Below are positions 30,660-43,124 of a DNA stretch of 64,000 bases, piece by piece. Source of the DNA: Polyangiales bacterium (lineage in GTDB: Bacteria; Myxococcota_A; Polyangia; Polyangiales; Houyiibacteriaceae); contig DATIUW010000103.1 in the NCBI GenBank assembly GCA_035466435.1, forward strand, positions 11,594 to 75,593, written 5' to 3'. Numbering within the stretch: position 1 is the stretch's first letter; each line of letters starts with the position of its first letter. The notes under the pieces are model-generated. The model searched no databases. It saw only the letters and a program-made list of their open reading frames with translations, and was not told the origin of the DNA. Both the position numbers and the translations under genes were made by a program.

Positions 30660-31778
30660 CTACCGTGGGCCGCCGAGCCAGCCCCGGCGTCGAAAGTAGT
30701 AAACCAGGCCGCCTCCAACGACGGCCATGAGGGCGAGCACGATCGGATAGCCGAAGGCCCAACCGAGCTCGGGCATGTTGTACGGCGACGCGTCCGGGTC
30801 GAAGTTCATTCCGTAGACGCCCGCGATGAAGCTCAGAGGCATGAAGACCGCGGCAAAGACGGTGAGCACCTTCATCACTTCGTTCAAGCGCTGGCTCGCC
30901 AGGCTGAGGTGTATGGAAACCAGCGCTGAGACCGTCTCGTTGTAGCTCTCCGTCACTTCGTTGAGCTGTACGATGTGGTCCTGACAATCTCGAAGGTAGA
31001 TTTTGGTGTCATCGGAAACCAACGGGCCTGCGATAGACGCCATCGCGGCGACCGCATCACGAGCCGGGTTCAGGTTGCGGCGCAAATGATTGAGATCGCC
31101 GCGAAGATCCAGCAAGCGCTGTACCACGGACGAATCGGATCTCGATAGAATCGCTCGCTCCATCTCGTCGATTCGATCGCCCATCGAATCCGCCAACGGC
31201 AGGTACTGGTCGATGGCGGAGTCGAGAAGCGCATAGGCGAGATAGTCCGCCCTTCCGTTGCGCACTCGGCCTTGCTTGCGGCGGATGCGCTCCCGCACCG
31301 CGTCGAAGCAATCCCCCTCTTCTTCTTGGAAAGTGAGGACGAAATCTCGACCGAGGAACACGCTGACCTGCTCGAACGTCGTAGCGCCGTCGTGCAAGTG
31401 CGGGATTCGAACGACGATGAATAGCGTGTCCCCGTATATCTCGGACTTCGGACGCTGGCGCTGATGAAGGACATCCTCGACCGCGAGCGCGTGGAGATTG
31501 AAGGCCGTGACGATGTGCGCCAGCGCTTCGGCGCTGCCGAGTCCGACCACGTCCAGCCAAAGAACTCGGCCGACTTCGGGGTGGAGCTTGTTCTTGGGGA
31601 TGGCCTTTTCGAAACGCTCTTCGATGAAGCTCTCGGCATCGTAGACCATTCTACGAACGACCGTGGGCGCGGCTTCTGGATGAGCTTCCAGGACGCCTGG
31701 CGGAGACCCAACCCGGTAGCGATTTCCGAGATCCAGGTAGTGCCGGGAGCGGCGGTTCTTGCGGCGAGCTTTCTTCAT
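30660..31778 (-). CDS. corA: CorA-family Mg2+/Co2+ channel
   Basis: YGMNF motif in the loop between two C-terminal TM helices. Overall length is typical. Confidence 0.9.
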   Translation of the reverse strand: MKKARRKNRRSRHYLDLGNRYRVGSPPGVLEAHPEAAPTVVRRMVYDAESFIEERFEKAIPKNKLHPEVGRVLWLDVVGLGSAEALAHIVTAFNLHALAVEDVLHQRQRPKSEIYGDTLFIVVRIPHLHDGATTFEQVSVFLGRDFVLTFQEEEGDCFDAVRERIRRKQGRVRNGRADYLAYALLDSAIDQYLPLADSMGDRIDEMERAILSRSDSSVVQRLLDLRGDLNHLRRNLNPARDAVAAMASIAGPLVSDDTKIYLRDCQDHIVQLNEVTESYNETVSALVSIHLSLASQRLNEVMKVLTVFAAVFMPLSFIAGVYGMNFDPDASPYNMPELGWAFGYPIVLALMAVVGGGLVYYFRRRGWLGGPR

Positions 31779-31853: not shown

Positions 31854-32849
31854 TTAGCCGGTGGAAGCCGCAATGTGTGCGATGGCATCGCCGCGGTGCA
31901 CGAGCGCCGAAGTCGCGTGCCCGATGACGATGCCCGGGCTGTTTGCTCGGACCAGGGTGCGATCTCGCCCCAGGGCGTCGAATATTACTGCGACACTTTC
32001 TCCTTCTGCCACGGCCGTGCCCAGGCTCACCATCATTTCGCAAAACCCGGTGCGGCGTGCGCGGACCCAGGAACTAGCGCGGTAGACGTGTGGTGGCTGT
32101 TCGGGGGACTCCACGCCGTAGTCGATCATGCCAAGTGCCTTCATGACGCGAAGCACGCCGCCCACTCCGAGCGCGATGGCGTGTGCGTCGAATCGGTTCG
32201 CTTCGCCAGCCTCGTAAACGAGGATAATCTTTCCTCTTTCCGTCGCTGCCGCACGCAAGGAACCATCGCGCAGACGCGAGTGCAATAGCACCGGCGCGCC
32301 GAACTCACTTGCAAGACGAAGGGTGTTCGGCTCAGTCAAGTCGCAACGCACCTGTGGTAAGTTGACGCGCCCATCCGAGCCGGTGTGTACGTCGAGGCCA
32401 ACGTCGGCGCGCGCCACCACTTCTTTCATGAACAGATGCGCCAACTGCGAGGCAGTGGAGCCGCGTTTGGAGCCGGGAAAGCTTCGATTGAGATCGCGCC
32501 GATCGGGCAGGTACCGCGACTCCTGGATCAACCCGAAGACGTTGATCACCGGCACTGCCAGGACCGTGCCGCAGAGATCGTTGGGATCGATGCGATCCAG
32601 GACCCGGCGGATGATCGGTATGCCCATCAGCTCGTCCCCATGAATGGCTCCGCTGACCCAGATCACGGGACCGTCTTTTCGGCCGTGCAAAACCCCGACC
32701 GGAAGTGAAAGCCACATGCCGGTGGGCAAACGCGCCACTTGGAGCTCGATCTGGGTCAGCTTGCCGGGCAGGGCTGCGACGCCGTCGATCTCGAAAGGGG
32801 CGCGTGGCTCACCCTTCGATCCGGTCCTTGGTCTTTCCTGGCTTCGCAT
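31854..32849 (-). CDS. Succinylglutamate desuccinylase/aspartoacylase-family (M14-like) deacylase
   Basis: [10 protein letters not shown] zinc-site block, DLNRSFPG and [14 protein letters not shown]. Overlaps the rimK 3' end by 41 nt. Confidence 0.8.
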
Positions 32850-33711
32850 GCTTCTCCAAGTATTCGATGATCGCTCCGGCCACGTCTTTGCCGCTGGTGG
32901 TCTCGATTCCCTCGAGCCCGGGCGAAGAATTCACCTCCATGACGACCGGTCCGTGATTGGAGCGCAGCATGTCGACGCCGGCGACACGGAGACCGAGCTT
33001 CTTCGCGGAACGCACTGCGGTGCTGCGCTCTTCGGGCGTGAGTCTCACCCGGGTCGCCTTGCCTCCGCGATGGAGGTTCGACCGAAACTCTCCGCGCGGC
33101 CCCTGCCGCATCATCGAGGCCACGACTTTGTCACCGATGACGAAGGCACGAATGTCTGCACCTCCGGCTTCCTTGATGAACTCTTGGACCAAAATGTTGG
33201 CATCGAGTTGGCTGAAGGCCGCCATGACGGATTCCGCCGCCTTGTCGGTTTCCGTGAGCACCACGCCAATGCCTTGTGTTCCTTCGAGAAGCTTGATGAT
33301 CAGCGGGGCACCACCGACCAGCTTGATCAAGCCCTGAATGTCCTTCGTGGAACGGGCGAATCCGGTCACCGGCAAGCCAATGCCCTCCCGCGCCAACAAT
33401 TGGAGCGCACGCAACTTGTCGCGAGCCCGAGAAATAGCTTGGGAGGTGTTCAGCGGGTACGTGCCCATCATCTCGAACTGTCGCACGACCGCAGTTCCGT
33501 AGAACGTATGGGACGCGCCAATACGCGGAATGACCGCGTCGAACTGCAGGGCGGTTCCCGCCAAGAGCACCTGAGGACGATGCGAAGTGATGTTCATGTA
33601 GCACCGCGTGAAGTCGACGACCCGCACCGTGTGACCTCGCTCCGCGGCGGCTTCTTTCAGTCTCTTGGTCGAGTAGAGCCTCGCATTCCTGGAAAGGATT
33701 CCGATCTTCAT
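32809..33711 (-). CDS. rimK: RimK-type ATP-grasp alpha-L-glutamate ligase
   Basis: [18 protein letters not shown]...[12 protein letters not shown]...[13 protein letters not shown]...[10 protein letters not shown]...[25 protein letters not shown] is close to canonical RimK. Confidence 0.9.
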
Positions 33712-34160
33712 GCCTCGTGCCTCTTCCTGCGCTTGGGAACCAGCCCACGACACAAGTATGAGCGCCCCGGCTCCACCACGAATCGCCCGCGAATGGCCTC
33801 GCGCCCGAGCAGCATTCTGAATCCCATTGCATCACGCGTAGTTAGGGTCAGATCGATCGGCCATCGCTCGGCTCCGAGCGCGAGGGACGTTCGAATGATC
33901 GGCCGGTACTCCCGGTGCCCGCTCGAGCTCTTCACGTGACGATGCTCGTGGAGCTCTGCCACACAGTGGATCGTCGTCTTCGTCTCTCGTTGCACCGGGT
34001 GAACGACGAAACGGACGTAGTCACGCGAGCCTCTCGAGAATACTTCGATGTCGTACGCATGAAGCGACGAGCTACGAGCGCCCGTGTCGACCTTCGCTTT
34101 GATCCGTGAGATGTCGAGGTCGGGCAACGCCACCCACTCACGCCAGCCGATGACCTTCAT
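33708..34160 (-). CDS. Retropepsin-like protease annotated as 'ATP-dependent zinc protease' (RimB-like, DUF785)
   Basis: [12 protein letters not shown]...[16 protein letters not shown] is the aspartyl D-T-G block. ATGA overlap with the rimK start. Confidence 0.75.
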
Positions 34161-34234
34161 GTCGCTCACGCCCACGAGCGTTGCCCTCGAAATTGCGAAA
34201 GTCAACGCGCTCTTTCAGTGTACCCTGTCGAGCC

Positions 34235-35674
34235 ATGTCGCTCCGGGACTATCTGACGCCACTCGATTTGTCTGCGATGTTCGGGCAGCTCGCTGGGTTG
34301 GTCCGAATGATGGGGGGGCTCTTGCTGGCGCCCGCTGCAGTCGGGTGGCTGAGTGGCGAATTTGTGATCGCCGGACTGCTTTCTGCGGTCAGCTTGCTCG
34401 GCTTGGGTCTCGGGCATTGGGGCCGCCGCTTGCTCTCGAGGGAGCTGGCTGCCCGCGAAGCCTTCTTGGTGACCGCACTCGCGTACCCGATCTTCTCGAT
34501 CGCCGGCGCAGTGGCCTTTCTTCCCGTCGCCCCTTTCATCGATGGTTTCTTCGAGAGCATGTCGGGTTTCACGACCACGGGACTCAGCGTCGTGCCGCTG
34601 GAAGACATGCCGCGAACGCTTCGCTTTTTTCGGTCGTACATGCAGTGGATTGGGGGCGCAGGCATCGTGATCTTGACGGTGGCGCTTCTCAACGCCACCC
34701 AGCCCGCAGGGTTCCGCTTTCGTCTCTACGGCTCCGGCTCGGAAGACGAGCGCATCGCAGGCGGCGTCCGCTCGACTGCTCGCGATCTGCTGAAGATCTA
34801 CGCGGTGCTGACCGGAGCCGTATGTTTGGCGCTCGTCGTGGTGGGAATGCCGATGGAAGACGCGGTGCTGCACGGGTTGGCCACGGTCTCCACCGGGGGC
34901 TTTTCGCCTCACGCCACCAGTATCGGCCACTACGTGAACGAGCCGCTGGTGCTCATCATCACCATGGTGGGCATGCTTCTCGGCGCCACGAGCTTCGCCA
35001 TTTACCAGCGTATCGCGCGACGCAACAAGAATCAGAACGACGAAACCGGGCGAGATCCCCAAGGCTTCGCCCTGGTGACCATCGTCTTGACAGGGGCGCT
35101 GCTGCTCTTCGTCTTGGAGGGAGAAGCTTGGCATGCCGTCTTCGATACCGTGACTTCCATCACCACGACCGGATTCTCGCTCGATGATCCGGCTGGATGG
35201 TCGCCTACGAGGAAGTTCTTCACGACCCTTTGGATGATCATCGGCGGCTCGACCGGCTCGACCGCGGGCGGCTTGAAGCTCATGCGATTTCTCGTGCTCC
35301 TCACCCTCGTGAGGTGGACCGTTCACAGACTGATGGTGCCAGCGGAAGCGAGGATCGCGCTCAAGTACGCAGGCGTGCCGATCGAGGCCGAGTCTCTGCG
35401 TCACTTGCTCGGTTTCATCGTGGCTTATCTCGCGTTGCTTCTCGCAGGTAGCGCCGCACTGGTCTTTGCCGGGTTCGATCCTGGCGATGCATTGTTCGAG
35501 AGCGCATCGGCCGTCGGAACGGTGGGGCTCTCGTGCGGCATCACGAACGCGACGCTACCTTCTTGGCTCAAGCTCGTGTTGAGCTTCCAGATGTGGGCTG
35601 GGCGACTCGAGGTCATCCCCGTGCTAGTGGTGTTCTATCCAGCAACCTGGAAGCTACGCAGGAGGTCGCGATGA
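34235..35674 (+). CDS. trkH: TrkH-family K+ uptake permease
   Basis: Multi-TM protein with repeated pore-loop blocks SGFTTTGLS, STGGFSP, TTTGFSL and SAVGTVGLS. Confidence 0.9.
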   Translation: MSLRDYLTPLDLSAMFGQLAGLVRMMGGLLLAPAAVGWLSGEFVIAGLLSAVSLLGLGLGHWGRRLLSRELAAREAFLVTALAYPIFSIAGAVAFLPVAPFIDGFFESMSGFTTTGLSVVPLEDMPRTLRFFRSYMQWIGGAGIVILTVALLNATQPAGFRFRLYGSGSEDERIAGGVRSTARDLLKIYAVLTGAVCLALVVVGMPMEDAVLHGLATVSTGGFSPHATSIGHYVNEPLVLIITMVGMLLGATSFAIYQRIARRNKNQNDETGRDPQGFALVTIVLTGALLLFVLEGEAWHAVFDTVTSITTTGFSLDDPAGWSPTRKFFTTLWMIIGGSTGSTAGGLKLMRFLVLLTLVRWTVHRLMVPAEARIALKYAGVPIEAESLRHLLGFIVAYLALLLAGSAALVFAGFDPGDALFESASAVGTVGLSCGITNATLPSWLKLVLSFQMWAGRLEVIPVLVVFYPATWKLRRRSR

Positions 35675-36324
35675 GGGTGATCATCGTGGGCATCGGCAGT
35701 ATTGGTTACGAGCTTACGAGAGACTTGACGCGCGGTGGCTCACACCAAGTCGTGCTGATCGACAACGATCCGGAGCGTTGCGAGGATCTGAGCGAGCAAT
35801 TCGATGCCTTCGTTCTCGAGGGTGACGGTACGAATCCCGAGTTGCTACAAAAAGCGCTCGTCGAAGAAGCGGACGCGCTGATTGCCAGCACGAGCTCGGA
35901 TGCGCTCAACACGGTCATCGCCATGCTTGCGAAACGATTCGACGTGCCGACTGTCATGGTCAAGCTCAAGGATCTCGGCCTGCGCGCCGCCTGCAAAGAG
36001 ATCGGCGTCGCACGGATCGTCACGCCCAGCATCTCGGCCGCGGCAGAAATGCTGGCGGCCTTGCACGGATTTGGCAGGCCCGACCTGTCCCTCGTGACCC
36101 GAGGAGGCCTGCGATTCGAGGAGCTCGAAGTGCAAGGAATCGATCCGACTTCGATACGTGAGCTGAACGTTCCGGACGGGGCCTTGATTCTCACGGTGGT
36201 TCGGGGTGAAGAAGTGCTGCTCGCGCGCGGCAGCACCCGCGTCCAGCAAGGCGACCTGTTGTTGCTGCTCGTCGAAAACGAACACGTGCTCGAACAGGTG
36301 CAGAGCCTGGTCGCTTCGAGCTAG
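35671..36324 (+). CDS. trkA: TrkA-type RCK (NAD-binding) regulatory subunit
   Basis: MRVIIVGIGSIGYEL Rossmann motif plus a C-terminal TrkA_C-like domain. ATGA overlap with trkH, with a GGAGG RBS. Confidence 0.85.
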   Translation: MRVIIVGIGSIGYELTRDLTRGGSHQVVLIDNDPERCEDLSEQFDAFVLEGDGTNPELLQKALVEEADALIASTSSDALNTVIAMLAKRFDVPTVMVKLKDLGLRAACKEIGVARIVTPSISAAAEMLAALHGFGRPDLSLVTRGGLRFEELEVQGIDPTSIRELNVPDGALILTVVRGEEVLLARGSTRVQQGDLLLLLVENEHVLEQVQSLVASS

Positions 36325-36327
36325 CGG

Positions 36328-36345
36328 CGGTCCCTGCGAGGACCG
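36328..36345. terminator. Weak hairpin between the convergent trkA and acidic ORF
   Basis: CGGTCC-CTGCGA-GGACCG. No clear U-tract. Confidence 0.2.
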
Positions 36346-36346
36346 A

Positions 36347-36610
36347 TCAATCTTCGGCTTTTCGCTTGGTGCGCCGGCGAACCGGTCCCCACCCGTCGTG
36401 CTCGTCCTCGTCAGACTCTTCGTCCTCTTCGCTTTCGCTCCAGGCGTCCAAATCCTCGTCCATCGTTCCCCATACGTCCGGATCCCAGTCGTCTTGACTG
36501 TCTTCCAACGAAGCTAGATCCGGATCTGACCACGGGTCTTCTGCGAACCAGTCCAGGTCGCTCCTGCGGTGATCACGGTCTCGCTTCGTTCTGTCGCCTC
36601 GTACCGGCAT
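36347..36610 (-). CDS. 87-aa hyper-acidic Trp/Asp-rich protein with basic termini, function unknown
   Basis: Start chosen at MPVRGDRTKRDRDHRR, 37 nt downstream of the predicted minus-strand -12 element. The core is DLDWFAEDPWSDPDLASLEDSQDDWDPDVW...EEDEESDEDEHDGW and the tail is RRRTKRKAED. No family recognised. Confidence 0.4.
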   Translation of the reverse strand: MPVRGDRTKRDRDHRRSDLDWFAEDPWSDPDLASLEDSQDDWDPDVWGTMDEDLDAWSESEEDEESDEDEHDGWGPVRRRTKRKAED

Positions 36611-36657
36611 GACGTTCCTCGCTTTGCTGTTGGGAAAGTCCCTGCTCTGCGGTCCGA

Positions 36658-36672
36658 GCACGTTCCGTGCCA
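36658..36672 (-). promoter_or_regulatory. Sigma-54 (-24/-12) promoter, minus strand
   Basis: The minus strand reads TGGCACGGAACGTGCT against the consensus TGGCACGrNNNTTGCW, with one mismatch (T to G at -14). Lies about 50 nt upstream of the ATG at 36610. Confidence 0.6.
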
Positions 36673-36743
36673 CTGAGCGCGGCGGGATCGATGATTGCAG
36701 CCGACGAGGATTTCGCGGTGGGGTGGGACGCAAGCATCGTCCC

Positions 36744-36794
36744 GGTGCAGAACCTGCACCCGGGACATCGCCGGATCCATGCAGGACTTGCACC
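36744..36794. promoter_or_regulatory. Two tandem 17-bp dyads (candidate bEBP upstream activating sites)
   Basis: Site 1 (36744-36760) is GGTGCAGAACCTGCACC, a perfect GGTGCA-N5-TGCACC dyad. Site 2 (36778-36794) is CATGCAGGACTTGCACC. Centres are 34 bp apart and both sites lie between the two -24/-12 elements. Confidence 0.5.
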
Positions 36795-36853
36795 GACCCC
36801 TCGAAAGTGGATTCCCGGGGTCGTTTTTCGTGGCGGTTAAGGGACAGTTTCCG

Positions 36854-36869
36854 CGGCACGCCCCTTGCT
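36854..36869 (+). promoter_or_regulatory. Sigma-54 (-24/-12) promoter, plus strand
   Basis: CGGCACGCCCCTTGCT against TGGCACGrNNNTTGCW. GG, GC and the spacing are exact. Lies 31 nt upstream of the ATG at 36900. Confidence 0.65.
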
Positions 36870-36899
36870 CTGGTTGGGCTCTATGAATCAGAGAACACC

Positions 36900-37142
36900 A
36901 TGACGCGTTCCCGGCTCGATTTGGTCACCCCCGAGGTCGTTCAGAAGATACGTTCGGAGAATCGCCTTCTGCTGGAGAGGACCGAGAGCATGCAGGCGAG
37001 CATCGAAACCGGACGGTTCGACGAGGCCGCGCCGATTGCTGCCGAGCTCGGCCGGGCTCTTCGAAAGCACGTTTTGCTCGTCGATGGAGTGCTGGACGTC
37101 TTGAGCCCCGATGACGTCCTCCCGGCACGCCGCCGGCGCTAG
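36900..37142 (+). CDS. 80-aa protein of unknown function
   Basis: This is the in-frame internal ATG of ORF 36609-37142 located just downstream of the plus-strand sigma-54 promoter. The sequence MTRSRLDLVTPEVVQKIRSENRLLLERTESMQASIETGRFDEA looks helical. Confidence 0.4.
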   Translation: MTRSRLDLVTPEVVQKIRSENRLLLERTESMQASIETGRFDEAAPIAAELGRALRKHVLLVDGVLDVLSPDDVLPARRRR

Positions 37143-37148
37143 AGCGGA

Positions 37149-38543
37149 TCACTTCTCGCCCGGCCATGCGCTTCGTTTGGTCACCCCCCATTCCTGAAGT
37201 CGGTACTGGATGGTCCGTTTGCTGATGCCGAGAATCGCGGCTGCCTTCGTCGGCGAACCCCCCACCGCTTCCAGGGTTCTGAGGATCGTATACCGTTCGA
37301 CCTCGGCCAAGGTCACGCCCGGCACGAGCAAGCTCAACGGCTCGACCTCCGGATCAGCCGCCCGGATTGGCAGGTCTTCCGCGCCGATGAGGTCTTGTTC
37401 ACAGAGGACCACCGCTTGCTCGATGGCATGTTGGAGCTCGCGGACGTTTCCCGGCCAAGGATAGCCGAGAAGCGCCTCGCGAGCGCGCGGCGTGAAGCCA
37501 CGCACCTGCTTGCCGTTCTCTTCCGAATAAAACCGAAGAAAATAATCGGCGAGAAGGGGAATGTCACTCGGGCGCGCGCGAAGCGGGGGTACGTCGAGCA
37601 CGACGACCTTGAGCCGGAAGTACAGATCCTCGCGAAACCTCCCGTCGTCGACCAGCGCCCTCAAGTCTCGGTTCGTGGCGGCGACGACTCGTACGTTGAC
37701 CTTGACGGTCTCGTTGCCGCCCACCCGCTCGAACTCCCGCTCCTGGAGAAAGCGAAGCAGCTTGACCTGCACCGAAAGCGGCATTTCGCTGAGCTCGTCG
37801 AGGAAGAGCGTGCCGCGGTCGGCCTGCTCGAACCGGCCGCTGCGTCGCGTCACGGCTCCCGTGAAGGCTCCCTTCTCGTGCCCGAAGAGCTCGGATTCGA
37901 GGACGCTTTCCGACAGCGCTGCGCAATTCAGCCGAATGAGAGGCCCCTCGCTCCGCAGCGAGTGCTCGTGCACGGCCTTGGCAATCAGCTCTTTGCCGGT
38001 CCCGGTCTCTCCCTGGATCAGCACCGTCGACCTGCTCTTGGCAGCCTGAAGCATTCGCTTGAAGAGCCGCTGCATCGAGGGATGCGCCCCGACGATGTGA
38101 TCGAGTCGCGTCGTCGGAAAGGACGCGGCAGCCTCGGCTCGCGCATTGATCGCGTCTCTCGCATGGATGGGCTTGTCGAGTGACCGCTCGACTACGAGGG
38201 CGAGCGCATCGGGTCGTATCGGCCTGGTGAGGCAGCGATCGGCGCCACTGGTCAAGGCTTTGACCGCCGTGTCAGTCGAGCCGGAGCTCGCGATCGCGAT
38301 GAATGAGGCCGAAGGCAGAAGCGCCCGAGCCTGCCGAAGGAACTCGAATCCGTCCATCCCGTCGAGATCGAGCTCGACGAGCACCACGTCGGGCATCGAC
38401 CGTTCCACGAGCTCGAGTGCCTCGGCGCCGTCGGGCGCCGTATCCACCGTGTGCCCGATCGCCGTGAGCTGAGCCTCCAGCTCGGATTGGACCTTCGCAT
38501 CGCCTTCGACGACCAGGACCCGGCCGGTCTGCTGCGGCATCAT
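37149..38543 (-). CDS. Sigma-54-dependent response regulator (NtrC-class bEBP)
   Basis: Receiver domain (VLVVEGD...[15 protein letters not shown]). AAA+ domain with [14 protein letters not shown] (GAFTGA loop) and ATNRDL. C-terminal Fis-type [23 protein letters not shown]. Confidence 0.9.
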
Positions 38544-38600
38544 GGCGCAAGGATGGCTCGCGCCGTCGGGGCCGTCCATAGTCGGTCGGCCACAAAGGTC

Positions 38601-38635
38601 GTGCGCGAAATCCGAGCAGGTGTCAGATTTGCGCA
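38601..38635. promoter_or_regulatory. Imperfect inverted repeat between the bEBP and kinase genes
   Basis: GTGCGCGAAATC (38601-38612) pairs with GATTTGCGCAC (38625-38635), giving 11-bp arms with one bulged G. Confidence 0.3.
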
Positions 38636-38643
38636 CGATCATC

Positions 38644-39504
38644 ATGCGCTGGGACGTGCTTCGAAACACCGGGAGCAAATCCGCCTCTCCGGCCCTCAAG
38701 GCGCGGCAGATGCTGGGCAAGTACCGCATCCGCCGTCGAATTGGCGCCGGGGCGTTTGCCACCGTCTACGAGGCCTACGACACGATCGAGGGCGCCCCGG
38801 TCGCCCTCAAGATTCCCCACCTCGACCAGCTCGACCAAGAGTCGCTGAATCTCATTCGCCGCGAGGTTCGGCTGACCGCGCGCCTGGAGCACGAGAACAT
38901 TCTTCCACTGCGCAACGCGATGATGATCGACGGACACTTCGTCATCGCGACGCCCCTCGGACAGCAGACGCTTGCCGACCGGTTGCACAGACGCCTCGGG
39001 CCCAAAACGGCGTTGTCGTACACGGAGCAGTTGCTTTCTGCCCTGGCGTACGCGCACGAAGAGCGGATCATTCACTGTGACATCAAGCCGGACAACGTGA
39101 TCCTCTTTCCCGGCGGGGTCGTCCGGCTCGCCGATTTCGGAATCGCGAAGGTCGCACTCAGAACGCGAACCATCATGGGGTCGGGGCAGGGAACCGTCGG
39201 CTACATGGCGCCGGAGCAGGCGATGGGGAAGCCGTCGTTTCGGTCCGATGTCTTCTCGATGGGGCTGTTGATCTACCGAATGTTCGCGGGGGAGCTCCCG
39301 GAGTGGCCGTTCGACTGGCCGCTACCGGGGGCGGAACGTCTCCGCCGAACGGTCAGCCGGGACTTCATCAGCTTCATCCGTCGCGCCATGGAGATTCGCG
39401 AACGCAAGCGGTATCGTGATGGGGTGCAGATGGAGCGGGCCTTCCAAGCCGTCCAGCCGCGAGCCCTTCGAAGCTCGACGCGTGGCGGGAGGTCGGCGCG
39501 GTGA
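38644..39504 (+). CDS. Ser/Thr protein kinase, catalytic domain only
   Basis: GAGAFATVY...ALK, HCDIKPDNV, DFGIAK and GTVGYMAPEQ. Start is 38644 or 38710. Confidence 0.85.
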   Translation: MRWDVLRNTGSKSASPALKARQMLGKYRIRRRIGAGAFATVYEAYDTIEGAPVALKIPHLDQLDQESLNLIRREVRLTARLEHENILPLRNAMMIDGHFVIATPLGQQTLADRLHRRLGPKTALSYTEQLLSALAYAHEERIIHCDIKPDNVILFPGGVVRLADFGIAKVALRTRTIMGSGQGTVGYMAPEQAMGKPSFRSDVFSMGLLIYRMFAGELPEWPFDWPLPGAERLRRTVSRDFISFIRRAMEIRERKRYRDGVQMERAFQAVQPRALRSSTRGGRSAR

Positions 39505-40328
39505 GCGAGACCCACATCTTCACGGATGTGGACACGACGCGAGGCGAGCGGTTCGAGCTCGGGGCTGGGGAAGCCGTCGTGCTCAGCATTCCAAAACCCG
39601 GACGCGACGGGCCGAACGAGGATGCCGCCGCGCTGATATCCCTCGCTGAGAATGCTGCCGTCGCCGTGGTCTCCGATGGGGCAGGCGGCCACCCTGGAGG
39701 CGCGGAGGCGGCATCGCTGGCCGTTCGGGCGGTCTGCGACTCAGTCGAGGAGCTCGGAGACGATCTCCACAACCTGAGGGATGCGATCATCAACGGCTTC
39801 GAATCGGCGGATCGAGCGATCTCGGCACTCGGCACGGGCGCGGCGGCCACCCTCGCGGTGGTCGAAATTCAGGGCAATCACATGCGGGCCTATCACGCGG
39901 GCGACTCCATGGTGCTCGTCACCGGTCAGCGCGGGCGGATCAAGTGGCTCACGATTCCGCACTCGCCCGTGGGCTATGCGGTCGAGGCCGGCCTGCTGGA
40001 TCGGGGCGATGCGCTGCACCACGAGGATCTTCACCTCGTATCCAACCTGCTCGGGGGTCAGGGAATGCGGATCGAGCTTGGTGCCGCTTTGGAGCTCTCG
40101 CCTCGCGACACGGTCGTTCTGGCGAGCGATGGGCTGAGTGACAATCTCCATCTCGACGAGATCGTCGAGCGTGTCCGAAAGGGACCGCTTCCCCGTGCCG
40201 TGGCCGAGCTGGCCGCATTGGGCCGCGAGAGAATGGCTGCGTCTTCCGACGGCGCGCCCTCGAAGCCAGACGACCTCACGTTCATTGCGATAAGGCGGCG
40301 CCGTTCGTCTGGCCGCAAGCGCCGTTGA
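39501..40328 (+). CDS. PP2C-family Ser/Thr phosphatase
   Basis: GTG start in a GTGA overlap with the kinase stop. NEDAAA, VSDGAGGHPGG and LASDGLSD blocks. Confidence 0.8.
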   Translation: MSETHIFTDVDTTRGERFELGAGEAVVLSIPKPGRDGPNEDAAALISLAENAAVAVVSDGAGGHPGGAEAASLAVRAVCDSVEELGDDLHNLRDAIINGFESADRAISALGTGAAATLAVVEIQGNHMRAYHAGDSMVLVTGQRGRIKWLTIPHSPVGYAVEAGLLDRGDALHHEDLHLVSNLLGGQGMRIELGAALELSPRDTVVLASDGLSDNLHLDEIVERVRKGPLPRAVAELAALGRERMAASSDGAPSKPDDLTFIAIRRRRSSGRKRR

Positions 40329-40938
40329 ACGCTTCCAGCTCGCGGACCGAGCGATAGCCTTTGCCCCAGCGAGCGAAGTGCTGGACGGCCGTCGCCGTCA
40401 CCGCGTCGACCAGGTGCCACAGAGGTTGCTCCACCTGCTCGACGAGCTTGAGGGCCGATTTGATCTGTGCGTCCCATCGCTCCGAGTAGCGATCGAGGTC
40501 GCCGGCCTCGACCCTCTTGCGACAGGGCCCGGTCGAGCACCGAAGCTCCATGCCTTCTGGAAGATTGAACATTCCGTACTCGTCGGTGATCTGTTCTCCC
40601 GCCTCGATGTCCCGTATCGCAATCTCGAAGCCATACGCCGTGCTCATGGTGTTGGCCTGGCAGCAGTGATTGACGAACTTGGCGTGGTCCCAGCTCACGA
40701 TGCGGACGCCATTCGGGTCGATGTAGGAATAGCGTTCGATGATCGGCGCAAGCGTGGGATCTTGGAGCCTCGGGTCCTCGGGCAGGATCTCGATCTCGAG
40801 CGGGTCCCAGACATAGGTGATGGTTCCCTTGGTGAGCCTGGCCTTGGCGAAGACTCCCAAACCGACGACGTCATCGATGTATCGCACTTCTGTGGATGGA
40901 TGAATCACGGTGCGGCCCGCGTGCAGGATCAGTGCCAA
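40282..40938 (-). CDS. SET-domain protein (putative lysine methyltransferase)
   Basis: GLGVFAKARLTKG..., FVNHCCQANT (NHxCxPN motif) and GEQITDEYG. Its 3' end overlaps the PP2C gene by 47 nt. Confidence 0.75.
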   Translation of the reverse strand: MALILHAGRTVIHPSTEVRYIDDVVGLGVFAKARLTKGTITYVWDPLEIEILPEDPRLQDPTLAPIIERYSYIDPNGVRIVSWDHAKFVNHCCQANTMSTAYGFEIAIRDIEAGEQITDEYGMFNLPEGMELRCSTGPCRKRVEAGDLDRYSERWDAQIKSALKLVEQVEQPLWHLVDAVTATAVQHFARWGKGYRSVRELEAFNGACGQTNGAALSQ

Positions 40939-41100
40939 GTGGGGCGGAAGTCAAGAGCCTCAGAACGCGGGAGGCGAGCGGCTCCTCGGTGCAAAACTTG
41001 CCCTCACGGGATGCGCAAGCCTTGCACTGGTGCCATTTCGGCCCCGTGGAGTAGGGCACGTGCGCGGGCCGCGGGGCGATGTCAGAGTTGCCCGCACCAG

Positions 41101-42147
41101 ATGAAAGGCGACCTTCGCAACGGCGCGACAAGTCCGGTCTTCCGCAATCGCGAGCTCGTCATCGAGGACTTTCCGCGGGGGGAGGTTTCACGCCTCTACG
41201 TCGATCTCGTCGCGAATGGCCTGGCCCAAGACATCCTACTTCCGGTCTTGGTGGCGCGGGGCAAGCGCGATGGTCCGGTTTTCGGGCTGACCGCTGCCGT
41301 TCACGGCAACGAGCTGAACGGCATCCGCGTGATTCACGACCTCATGCATCATATCGACCCGCGGCAGCTCCAGGGCGCGCTGGTAGCCGTGGTCGTCGTC
41401 AACGTCCCAGGTCTGCATCGGCATCAACGGGAGTTCGTCGATGGTGGCGACCTCAATCACATCTTCCCAGGTCGTGAGGATGGGAACGTCGCCGAGGTCT
41501 ACGCTCACCGAATCCTGGATCGAATCGTCAAACGCTTCGACTATTTGGTAGACTTGCACACGGCGAGCTTCGGCAGGGTCAACTCGCTCTACGTGCGCGC
41601 CGACATGACACAGCTCTCGACAGCGACCATGGCGTACCTGCAGCGGCCGCAGATCATCGTCCACAATCCACCCTCGGACTACACCCTACGGGGCGCAGCG
41701 ATGGATCTCGGGATTCCTTCCATCACCTTGGAGGTAGGCGACCCCCAGCGCTTTCAGCCGGGCTTCGTGAAATCGTCGCGCATTGGTCTTCGAACCGTGC
41801 TGGCCGCCGCGGGCATGCTCCCGAGGCGTCCCGTCGCCGAAGGCCACGAGCCTGTCCTGTGCGAGCGTTCCTTTTGGATGTACGCCGATCGCGGCGGGCT
41901 TTTGGAGGTGCTTCCGCGTCCCACCGAGCTGGTGAGTCGCGGTGAGCGCGTCGCCGTGCTTCGGAATGCCTTCGGAGACGTGATCCGCGAATACCACGCG
42001 CCGCAGGACGGCATCGTCATAGGCAAGAGCGCCAACCCGGTGGGCCAAACCGGCGCTCGGATCTTGCACTTGGGCGTCATCGCGTCGGCGGAGCACGGCT
42101 TTCAACGGCGGCCGGCGAGCCCTGCGGTTCTGCAAGGGAGCCATTGA
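41101..42147 (+). CDS. Succinylglutamate desuccinylase/aspartoacylase-family (M14-like) deacylase, second copy
   Basis: Start reset to MKGDLRNG at 41101. AAVHGNELNG, DLNHIFPG and VDLHTASFGRVNSLYVR parallel the copy at 31854-32849. Confidence 0.8.
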   Translation: MKGDLRNGATSPVFRNRELVIEDFPRGEVSRLYVDLVANGLAQDILLPVLVARGKRDGPVFGLTAAVHGNELNGIRVIHDLMHHIDPRQLQGALVAVVVVNVPGLHRHQREFVDGGDLNHIFPGREDGNVAEVYAHRILDRIVKRFDYLVDLHTASFGRVNSLYVRADMTQLSTATMAYLQRPQIIVHNPPSDYTLRGAAMDLGIPSITLEVGDPQRFQPGFVKSSRIGLRTVLAAAGMLPRRPVAEGHEPVLCERSFWMYADRGGLLEVLPRPTELVSRGERVAVLRNAFGDVIREYHAPQDGIVIGKSANPVGQTGARILHLGVIASAEHGFQRRPASPAVLQGSH

Positions 42148-43124
42148 TGCGGGTGTGCTTCGTCGTGAACGATCGGCGGGAGCCTTCCGCCGAGCAGACC
42201 ACCACGCTCTTGATTGCCGCCGCTGCGCGAAGAGGGCACGAGGTTCTGGTCTGCGGTGTTTGCGATTTCACCGTGACCGACGACGGCACGCTCCATGTCC
42301 TCGGTCGTCGCGTGGAAGCAACGGAGCCGTCAGCCGTCGTCGAGGAGCTCCTCGGAGGCCAAGCGCACAGTCAGGCGCTCGGCGAGCAGGACTTGTGCGT
42401 CATCCGGACGAACCCGGGTCGGGACGAGGCGCGCCGCGCCGAGCACGTGGCGGCGCTTCGTCTCCTCGAGCAACTCGATGAGCAGGGTGTTCGCGTCCTC
42501 AACCACCCACGGGGCCTCTCGCGGGCGCTCACCAAGCTCTCTCTTCTGGAGGTCCCGCCTTCCTCGAGGCCGCGTACCCTGATCACGCGGGACGTTGCGA
42601 CGATCGAACGATTTCTCCACGACGCACCGGACCGGATCGTCATCAAGCCCCTCGATGGAACCCGAGGTCGCGATGTCTTCGTCCTCGATCCGGCAGGCTC
42701 GCGGGCCAACGTGAAGCAGATCATCGAGGTCGTGCTCCGGCGCGGCTATGCGATGGTGCAGGAATTCGTACCCGGGGCCGACCGTGGGGACGTTCGGGTG
42801 ACCGTCGTGAACGGCCGGGTCCTCGAAGTCGATGGCCAGCCGGCTGCCATTGCGAGAGTACCGAGGGGCGGAGATTTTCGAAGCAACCTTCACGCTGGCG
42901 GGGCTGCCGAGCCGTCCGACGTCACCGACGCCATGCGAGACGCGATTGCAGAGCTTGCCCCTCACCTACGACGGGAAGGACTCTTTCACGTGGGCGTGGA
43001 TTTCGTGGGCGGCCGCATACTAGAGCTGAACGTGTTCAGCCCAGGTGGGCTCCATCCGAGCGAGCGTCTCTATGGGCAGGATTTCAGCGGCGCGGTCGTC
43101 GAGGCGTTCGAGCAACGAGCTTGA
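42144..43124 (+). CDS. ATP-grasp ligase, glutathione-synthetase/RimK-like
   Basis: ATGA overlap with the upstream deacylase. GshB-like N-domain (RVCFVVNDRREPSAEQTTTLLIAAAARRGHEV). IVIKPLDGTRGRDV, DFRSNLHAGG and VGGRILELNVFSPGG. Confidence 0.8.
   Translation: MMRVCFVVNDRREPSAEQTTTLLIAAAARRGHEVLVCGVCDFTVTDDGTLHVLGRRVEATEPSAVVEELLGGQAHSQALGEQDLCVIRTNPGRDEARRAEHVAALRLLEQLDEQGVRVLNHPRGLSRALTKLSLLEVPPSSRPRTLITRDVATIERFLHDAPDRIVIKPLDGTRGRDVFVLDPAGSRANVKQIIEVVLRRGYAMVQEFVPGADRGDVRVTVVNGRVLEVDGQPAAIARVPRGGDFRSNLHAGGAAEPSDVTDAMRDAIAELAPHLRREGLFHVGVDFVGGRILELNVFSPGGLHPSERLYGQDFSGAVVEAFEQRA

Follow-up and report, generated by a model that had tools for sequence, protein, structure and literature searches.

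A probable bidirectional sigma-54 control region beside an enhancer-binding protein gene in uncultured Polyangiales

What is controlled by a short intergenic gap in which promoter-like blocks point outward to both sides, and by which activator, is the question raised by one locus in a stretch of 64 kb with 62% GC (hereafter the window) from a Polyangiales bacterium (GenBank assembly GCA_035466435.1, contig DATIUW010000103.1). The gap of 289 bp (36611-36899) separates a minus-strand gene for an acidic protein of 87 aa (36347-36610) from a plus-strand gene for a protein of 80 aa, here called p80 (36900-37142), and the p80 gene is convergent with the minus-strand gene of a bacterial enhancer-binding protein (bEBP, 464 aa; 37149-38543). 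A preliminary description of this DNA had proposed two divergent sigma-54 promoters sharing tandem dyads beside a cognate bEBP, and this proposal is supported by the phylogenetic footprint of the region in a further 20 genomes of species level. As will be argued below, the presence of two promoters with a shared dyad enhancer is highly probable, and the fuller explanation, in which the adjacent bEBP governs the gap as a bidirectional sigma-54 control region, is in our judgement a probable one.

Promoters and dyads of the gap

Close reading of positions 36200-38700 located a switch region of ~215 bp inside the gap, consisting of two outward-facing sigma-54 promoter candidates and a pair of dyads that they would share. 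All four elements lie where the preliminary description had placed them or within 1 nt, the minus promoter beginning at 36657 and not at 36658. This minus promoter, TGGCACGGAACGTGCT (36657-36672, minus strand), faces the acidic gene, with a predicted start at ~36646 and a leader of ~36 nt, while the plus promoter, CGGCACGCCCCTTGCT (36854-36869, plus strand), faces p80, with a predicted start at ~36880 and a leader of ~20 nt. Dyad 1, GGTGCAGAACCTGCACC (36744-36760, no strand), has 7-bp arms and a 3-bp spacer and is the putative bEBP site, or upstream activating sequence (UAS); dyad 2, CATGCAGGACTTGCACC (36778-36794, no strand), 34 bp beyond it, would be the second UAS site. The distance of 70-105 bp from the start sites that had been given for the dyads needs a minor correction: counted from the start predicted for the nearer promoter, the dyad centres are at ~106 and ~94 nt.

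Both promoters match 11 of the 12 consensus positions (TGGCAC-N5-TTGCW), with 10 nt between GG and GC. In a pattern scan of the 64 kb, each 16-mer showed one mismatch to TGGCACG-N4-TTGCW, and three matches with at most one mismatch were found versus 0.68 expected, the third lacking the GG. The dyad pattern has two exact matches in the window, and five with at most two mismatches versus 0.37 expected. Position weight matrices (PWMs), built solely from the orthologous sites of other species and then scored on the window, ranked the minus promoter (24.2 bits) and the plus promoter (18.4 bits) first and second, and likewise returned the two dyads (24.4 and 23.6 bits) as the top two. When 20 shuffled copies of the window served as the null, the best promoter score had a mean of 14.2 and a maximum of 21.4, so that by PWM score alone the plus promoter falls within the chance range; both dyads score above the shuffle maximum of 18.8 (mean 13.6). 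The third-best sigma-54 match, TGGTACAGCGCTTGCT (31111-31126, minus strand), lies within the coding region of corA and, at 15.2 bits, is in the range of shuffled sequence.

For comparison, GTDB species representatives were scanned with an alignment of p80, which yielded 20 loci, and extra contigs were added through exact-protein look-ups; the 20 loci come from species-level Polyangiales/Myxococcales metagenome-assembled genomes (MAGs), which together with the window make 21 genomes. In the 20 other species, the four blocks are the sole conserved parts of the gap, the cassette alignment giving a column identity of 0.82-0.90 within the promoter and dyad blocks versus 0.42 outside. The plus promoter is kept as nGGCACGnnnnTTGCT upstream of p80 in every one of the 20, and the minus promoter is kept as TGGCACrrAAnnTGCT, ~195-201 bp from the plus promoter, in all except L028. 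As had been proposed, neither the GG nor the GC varies and the -24/-12 spacing is exact, both in the window and in the orthologous sites.

The geometry of the region is conserved as well. The centre of dyad 1 lies 94-96 bp from the -12 GC of the minus promoter in 16 of the 19 loci keeping that promoter (the others having 98 bp in L020, 64 bp in L017 and 62 bp in L022), that of dyad 2 lies 80-86 bp from the -12 GC of the plus promoter in nearly all loci, and the dyads are spaced 33-34 bp apart. The ~31 bp lost on one side in L017 and L022 equal three helical turns, and the ~10 bp lost on the other side in L019 equal one turn; such whole-turn changes are what would be expected if the helix face matters for contact between enhancer and promoter. 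A loose dyad-pair pattern run over metagenome contigs matched at least 120 loci, most of them by chance; nine of these had both promoters at the right distances and all nine carried p80, and among the matches listed no cassette was seen away from p80.

With regard to the dyads themselves, the conserved cores are GTGCAG-N3-CTGCAC in dyad 1 and TGCAG-N4-TGCAC in dyad 2, with TGCA starts 9 bp apart, and the outer GG/CC varies among species. The preliminary description had seen in the half-sites the hexamers of the classical NtrC site, arranged in everted order; this is not a conserved feature, only the TGCA-type cores being kept, and the dyads are ruled out as sites of the NtrC consensus (TGCACC-N5-GGTGCA) by the differing core and the variable outer bases. 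On an unrelated metagenome contig (L091:776-1186), two dyads of a similar kind, TGCAGGCCTTGCAC and TGCAGGTGTTGCAC, stand between divergent, weaker sigma-54-like 16-mers; one flanking frame, when translated, begins like a signal peptide, and a bEBP homologue is encoded on the same contig.

Other features of the gap can be noted. A short inverted repeat, GGGACTTTCCC, is located at ~36625-36645 in the leader of the acidic mRNA, just past the predicted start, and has counterparts in L014, L015 and L022 (GGGTATGTTCCC, GGGGATGTTCCCC and GGGCAGGTGCCC, respectively) in which the letters differ and pairing seems to be kept; it may form a 5' stem-loop. T-tracts at ~36700-36706 and ~36824-36829, about midway between promoter and dyad and partly kept in relatives, could aid looping, either as intrinsic bends or as sites for IHF/HU.

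The activator and the two small proteins

The bEBP combines Response_reg, Sigma54_activat, AAA_lid and HTH_8 domains (Pfam), with an E value of 1.5e-71 for Sigma54_activat (PF00158). Its Walker A (GETGTGKE), GAFTGA and Walker B (FLDE) motifs are intact in alignment, and no other protein of the 64-kb window has a GAFTGA motif. ZraR and NtrC4 are the closest solved structures, NifA could also be aligned, and PspF is found among the structural matches of the AAA+ domain. The protein reaches no NCBIfam equivalog cut-off, and identity with NtrC (NR-I) was rejected at 389.8 bits against the cut-off of 558.6 for TIGR01818. In all 20 species the bEBP gene adjoins the cassette, at 72-96% identity, and the Fis-type helix-turn-helix (HTH) is almost invariant in the 20 orthologues, paralleling the invariant core of the dyads. 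The adjacent bEBP would bind the dyads through its Fis-type HTH, and their distance from the promoters falls in the range expected of UAS sites (~80-150 bp upstream).

The preliminary description had taken the protein for a receiver-type activator of the NtrC class ending 7 nt from the p80 frame. The stop-to-stop distance of 7 nt and the sigma-54 domain hold, and the receiver turns out to be degenerate. When residues 8-110 were aligned to NtrC4, the acceptor aspartate was found to be replaced by E57 in the window, which we take to be the same substitution as in the constitutive NtrC mutant D54E. Across 20 sequences (the window and 19 orthologues, that of L019 being truncated) the acceptor position is occupied by E in nine, A in six, G in three and D in two; the DD pair has become (S/G)D, the Thr has become A or G, and the Lys has become R in 17 of the 20. 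With the acidic pocket, acceptor Asp, Thr and Lys all substituted, a role of the bEBP as a phospho-accepting response regulator was rejected. No histidine kinase gene was noticed adjacent to it in any locus, where part of the flanking open reading frames (ORFs) was run against Pfam. The idea of a "signal-controlled module" needs refinement, since the lost receiver pocket makes a histidine-kinase phosphorelay improbable. Given the loss of the pocket, what sets the activity of the bEBP is most likely a partner protein or some other modification, and not a histidine kinase.

As for such a partner, p80 is the best candidate for feedback on the bEBP, a suggestion made by analogy and with low to moderate confidence; p80 owes this leading place to its strict linkage to the bEBP gene and its predicted sigma-54 dependence. 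Another candidate for the input, a non-universal one, is the pair of a Ser/Thr protein kinase (38542-39504 as the longest ORF, the true start being probably later) and a PP2C phosphatase (39501-40328), both identified with Pfam, on the plus strand and divergent from the bEBP gene.

That both small ORFs are real genes follows from the pattern of their differences. Between orthologues, p80 differs at codon positions 1, 2 and 3 in the proportion 304:242:810 and the acidic protein in the proportion 275:266:560, and this third-position excess indicates purifying selection on the proteins. Wherever a source name is given, the homologues of both come from Myxococcales/Polyangiales MAGs, including "Myxococcales bacterium SG8_38".

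For p80, more than 100 homologues were found, with identities of 61-100%, one Polyangiales MAG holding a protein identical to that of the window; when 1.8 billion representatives were searched exhaustively with a profile, only 28 clusters of the family were recovered. The helical nature foreseen for it is borne out by an AlphaFold2 model with a predicted local distance difference test (pLDDT) value of 84, in which helices 11-37 and 40-67 form a two-helix hairpin. No curated family was matched in Pfam, NCBIfam, PHROGs, PADLOC or PDB sequence and profile searches, and Foldseek returned generic hairpins only (E >0.3), including a non-significant match to the CHMP3/ESCRT-III hairpin (E >1). A JetA match (E = 0.008) and a match to a de novo helical barrel, obtained with the small proteins, were set aside as generic coiled-coil noise. 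In each of the 20 loci that the p80 search returned, the gene and that of the bEBP are in convergent orientation. More distant homologues (L030-L033) have a sigma-54-like 16-mer of the form GG-N10-GC upstream on the coding strand in four of four cases; L033 also carries a dyad of the TGCAC-N type ~90 bp further upstream, and L031 a bEBP of receiver-AAA-HTH composition 1.5 kb away. The convergent junction of p80 and the bEBP gene contains no terminator or unusual structure (fold z-score 0.12), and antisense read-through from p80 into the bEBP gene is a secondary possibility.

In two relatives the plus promoter is followed by an extra gene of ~240-260 aa (L019:5878-6657 and L028:6270-6995) with a weak match to the PcrA/UvrD tudor domain, so that p80 there takes second place in an operon. 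The promoter is equally far from p80 in L020 and L022, at 764-790 bp upstream, and no comparable gene was identified in these two.

The acidic gene has a GAGGA ribosome-binding site and is the first gene behind the minus promoter. Its product is, as had been described, a hyper-acidic protein with many tryptophans and basic termini: it contains 32 D+E, six Trp and 13 K+R that are confined to the termini (pI 4.2), whereas its 60-residue core contains 27 D+E and no K+R at all, and Cys is absent throughout. Homologues number 14 by direct search and 79 at profile level, and within the variable acidic sequence the motifs LDWFAEDPW and GWGPVRRR are invariant, GWGP continuing into the basic tail. The protein is predicted to be intrinsically disordered, its AlphaFold2 model having no secondary structure, a pLDDT of 60 and a predicted template modelling (pTM) score of 0.19. 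It went as unrecognized as p80, with no match in Pfam, NCBIfam, PHROGs or PADLOC and no solved structure in PDB sequence and profile searches or Foldseek. Two identities were considered for it. RimB of Pseudomonas requires a run of at least 5-6 Glu (PMC11957791); the longest Glu run here is two, and the C-terminal residues vary among orthologues (ED, DD, RE, RG, GP, SG), whereas a conserved acidic C-terminus would be expected of a RimK substrate; on these grounds a substrate of RimK/RimB was rejected. A LysW-type carrier, that is, a zinc ribbon of ~54 aa ending in EDWGE, was also rejected, as the protein has no Cys and is predicted to be disordered.

Genes probably served by the promoters

Further to the left of the acidic gene lie, on the minus strand, a rimB-like gene (33708-34205), rimK (32809-33753), an AstE/AspA-like gene (31854-32849) and corA (30660-31778), the last two assigned with Pfam and NCBIfam. 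RimK is of equivalog level for an S6-glutamate ligase (NF007764, 426.5 bits versus a cut-off of 331); the RimB-like protein is a clear member of PF05618 and scores 138.8 bits with the RimB model, under its cut-off of 200. No EAL (RimA) gene was seen at the locus. Between the acidic gene and the rimB-like gene the window holds trkH-trkA (34181-36324, Pfam) on the plus strand, and because of this intervening opposite-strand pair the acidic gene is monocistronic in the window and rimBK is uncoupled from the sigma-54 promoter.

The pair trkH-trkA occupies this position in the window, L001/L011 (SG8_38) and L013 and is absent from it in L004/L010, L007 and L012, where the acidic gene, rimB, rimK, the astE-like gene and corA form one same-strand string. 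In other relatives rimK stands closer to the minus promoter, starting 40 nt past it in L027, L060 and L074 and ~100 nt past it in L024 and L068, and in L025 and L106 truncated rimK-like frames of 81 and 71 codons begin ~84 nt past it. MscS-like and MgtE genes precede rimK in L016 and L029, and a cluster of N-formylglutamate amidohydrolase (FGase), GshB-like ATP-grasp and MATCAP (tyrosine carboxypeptidase-like) genes follows the minus promoter in L025 (2561-6495) and L026 (4121-6503). The outputs of the promoters would thus exceed the two small ORFs that had been attributed to them, and in relatives would comprise rimK or acidic-rimB-rimK. What these genes share is the addition or removal of acidic residues at the C-terminus by amidoligases and peptidases, together with cation transport, and with moderate confidence we regard the regulon as linked to C-terminal glutamylation of the RimK type and to genes of cation transport, with a physiological role related to RimK. 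In Pseudomonas, RimK is regulated by RimA, RimB and cyclic di-GMP, and RimK systems are regarded as regulated adaptive modules (PMC7343187; PMC11957791). Control of rimK by sigma-54 and a bEBP is not described in the RimK literature found by our literature search.

A third sigma-54-like promoter, TGGCACTGATCCTGCA (40922-40937, minus strand), ~4 kb away, faces a SET-domain gene (ORF 40282-40938, minus strand, with a likely GTG start at 40908). The predicted transcription start is ~3 nt before this GTG, giving a near-leaderless mRNA. Two more dyads, GTGCAAAACTTGCCC (40989-41003, no strand) and GCGCAAGCCTTGCAC (41013-41027, no strand), lie 24 bp apart and 72 and 96 bp, respectively, from the -12 element of this promoter. 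With 15.4 and 14.3 bits, they rank fourth and fifth in the window after the two dyads of the gap and a lone site at 1729-1743; since these scores are inside the shuffled range given above, the case for them is made by conservation. The promoter is kept as TGGCA(C/T)-N5-nTGCA in five lineages while its flanks diverge, and both dyads are conserved in L001/L011, L004/L010, L007, L012 and L013. The SET gene is probably under the same activator and in the same regulon.

The dyads of the SET gene sit in the gap between it and a second AstE/AspA-like gene with a GshB-like ATP-grasp ligase (41098-43124), on the far side of this island. In L018 and L027 the latter pair comes immediately after the bEBP gene. 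Just ahead of the start of the second AstE-like gene there is a conserved GGTGTCAGAGTTGC, the window having GA in place of GG.

A model, its alternatives and related systems

These observations can be assembled into a plausible scenario, for which we infer the start sites, the dependence on rpoN, the binding of the dyads by the bEBP, the role of p80 and the physiological signal. Dimers of the bEBP would bind the two TGCA-type dyads through their Fis-type HTH and assemble into an AAA+ ring, which by looping of the DNA would remodel the sigma-54 holoenzyme at either of the outward -24/-12 promoters ~95-105 bp away. Rightward transcription would then yield p80 and leftward transcription the acidic disordered protein, and p80, made under the control of the bEBP itself, may feed back on it in the manner of FliX on FlbD, PspA on PspF, or ZraP. 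A bolder version holds that p80, as a novel type of small partner, replaces phosphorylation for the pseudo-receiver bEBP in a feedback loop resembling those of FliX or PspA, that the acidic protein is a new component of the RimK/RimB system (a regulator, decoy or adaptor), and that the SET, kinase/phosphatase, AstE-like and ATP-grasp genes all belong to a protein-tail-modification regulon of marine Polyangiales under sigma-54 control; we consider this combination unlikely.

Several points weigh against this scenario. rpoN is not in the 64-kb window, and its presence in the host is assumed from what is known of the Myxococcota; all genomes compared are uncultured MAGs. L025 and L028 keep the Asp at the acceptor position of the receiver, and the kinase and phosphatase genes adjoin the bEBP gene in only eight of the 20 species loci, which weakens them as a universal signal input. 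The partner role of p80 is purely conjectural, the helical hairpin into which it folds is of a generic type, and one of the distant homologues, encoded on a short contig, has no bEBP gene beside it. In the window, the link to RimK is one of homologous arrangement only, with trkHA intervening. Even in relatives with the uninterrupted string, gaps of 86-107 bp before rimB (L004:5295-5380 and L007:5280-5386) contain a conserved CATAATGG, and that of L007 also a hairpin of CCCCAC-TTTTTT-GTGGGG, so that rimB may there have its own promoter or attenuator besides read-through.

The alternative that survives best accepts the promoters and differs as to their purpose. Here the module is chiefly a regulon of ionic or osmotic stress, in which the acidic protein is hydrophilin-like or cation-buffering and the association with RimK reflects a shared stress response. 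The recurrence of TrkAH, CorA, MgtE and MS_channel (MscS-like) genes in the neighbourhood fits this idea, as do the disorder and the extreme charge of the acidic core and the features, namely the short Glu runs and the variable C-terminus, that argue against a RimK substrate. However, the invariance of LDWFAEDPW and GWGPVRRR points to binding of a specific partner and not to a bulk physicochemical function, and the transporter genes are inconsistently on the strand of the promoter or directly behind it. On balance a regulon of this kind seems rather unlikely.

According to a second alternative, the dyads are bound by an activator encoded elsewhere, either a true NtrC or another bEBP, and the adjacent bEBP regulates something else. 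Myxococcota encode many bEBPs, the half-sites contain TGCA/GCAC as NtrC sites do, and the dyad pair of L091 indicates that this class of motif is not unique to the present locus. Yet L091 also has a bEBP homologue, the geometry of the dyads is unlike the NtrC consensus, and the HTH of the adjacent bEBP is almost invariant, in line with the dyad core. That cassette and bEBP gene stay adjacent in 20 of 20 species, although all else around them is rearranged, tells against it too, and we hold this possibility to be quite improbable. That the conserved blocks represent a different kind of element, in DNA or RNA, and that the small ORFs do not code for protein is barely credible even for a high-GC genome, where many spurious ORFs arise, given the invariant GG/GC, exact spacing and outward orientation in 21 genomes, the lack of any Rfam match in 36000-38800, the third-position excess of both ORFs, the confident fold of p80, and a 170-aa extended frame across the gap that is not conserved among orthologues.

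The regulatory architecture is a textbook one and not a new mechanism, a member of a known regulatory type, and the value of the locus lies in its cargo, the uncharacterized proteins, and in its wiring. One enhancer serving two sigma-54 promoters, at spacings that keep the helical phase in at least 21 species, would be useful for studying how the activator ring chooses its promoter. Through the cassette, control by sigma-54 and a bEBP is linked to rimK and hence to adaptive ribosome modification, for which it is a possible transcriptional input, and the two conserved small protein families and the pseudo-receiver bEBP offer entry points to stress signalling in an uncultured and widespread sediment lineage.

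The classical NtrC enhancer of glnAp2 consists of tandem dyads whose half-sites contain GCAC/GTGC and which precede a sigma-54 promoter by ~100-140 bp. The present region shares the tandem dyads upstream of a sigma-54 promoter and half-sites of that content, but differs in the order and spacing of the half-sites, the TGCA starts being 9 bp apart and not 13. In the phage shock system, PspA is a helical coiled-coil product of the sigma-54 regulon that binds and inhibits its own bEBP, PspF. p80 resembles it as a helical product of a probable sigma-54 regulon, and PspF matches the bEBP structurally in the AAA+ domain; on the other hand, PspF has no receiver, and PspA is a protein of ~220 aa with an ESCRT-III-like fold.

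As in the RimABK system of Pseudomonas, rimK has the gene of a RimB-like retropepsin beside it, and in relatives the two genes stand behind the leftward promoter. Unlike that system, the locus has no RimA (EAL) gene, contains additional AstE/AspA-like and GshB-like ATP-grasp genes, and encodes an acidic protein that has no counterpart there. FlbD of Caulobacter crescentus has a divergent receiver and no cognate kinase, and is controlled by direct binding of the small protein FliX and not by phosphorylation (PMC3096577). The bEBP is likewise an activator whose receiver lacks key residues of phosphorylation, and by analogy the same logic is proposed for the bEBP and p80, although p80 is related to FliX neither in sequence nor, as far as shown, in structure, and the targets here are non-flagellar.

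The closest known architecture is that of zraP/zraSR in E. coli and Salmonella, in which zraP and zraSR have divergent sigma-54 promoters, both driven by ZraR, and ZraP acts back on ZraSR as a repressor (PMC4987338). There as here, one bEBP acts, or would act, between divergent sigma-54 promoters that point outward from a shared UAS, one of which drives, or would drive, a small protein. Three differences stand beside this likeness. The second zra promoter drives the sensor and bEBP genes, whereas the bEBP gene here is behind neither promoter and convergent with p80 in all 20 loci; ZraR accepts a phosphate and has a cognate kinase, whereas the acceptor Asp is lost here; and ZraP is periplasmic, whereas p80 has no sequence similarity to it and no signal peptide was noticed in p80, for which no predictor was run.

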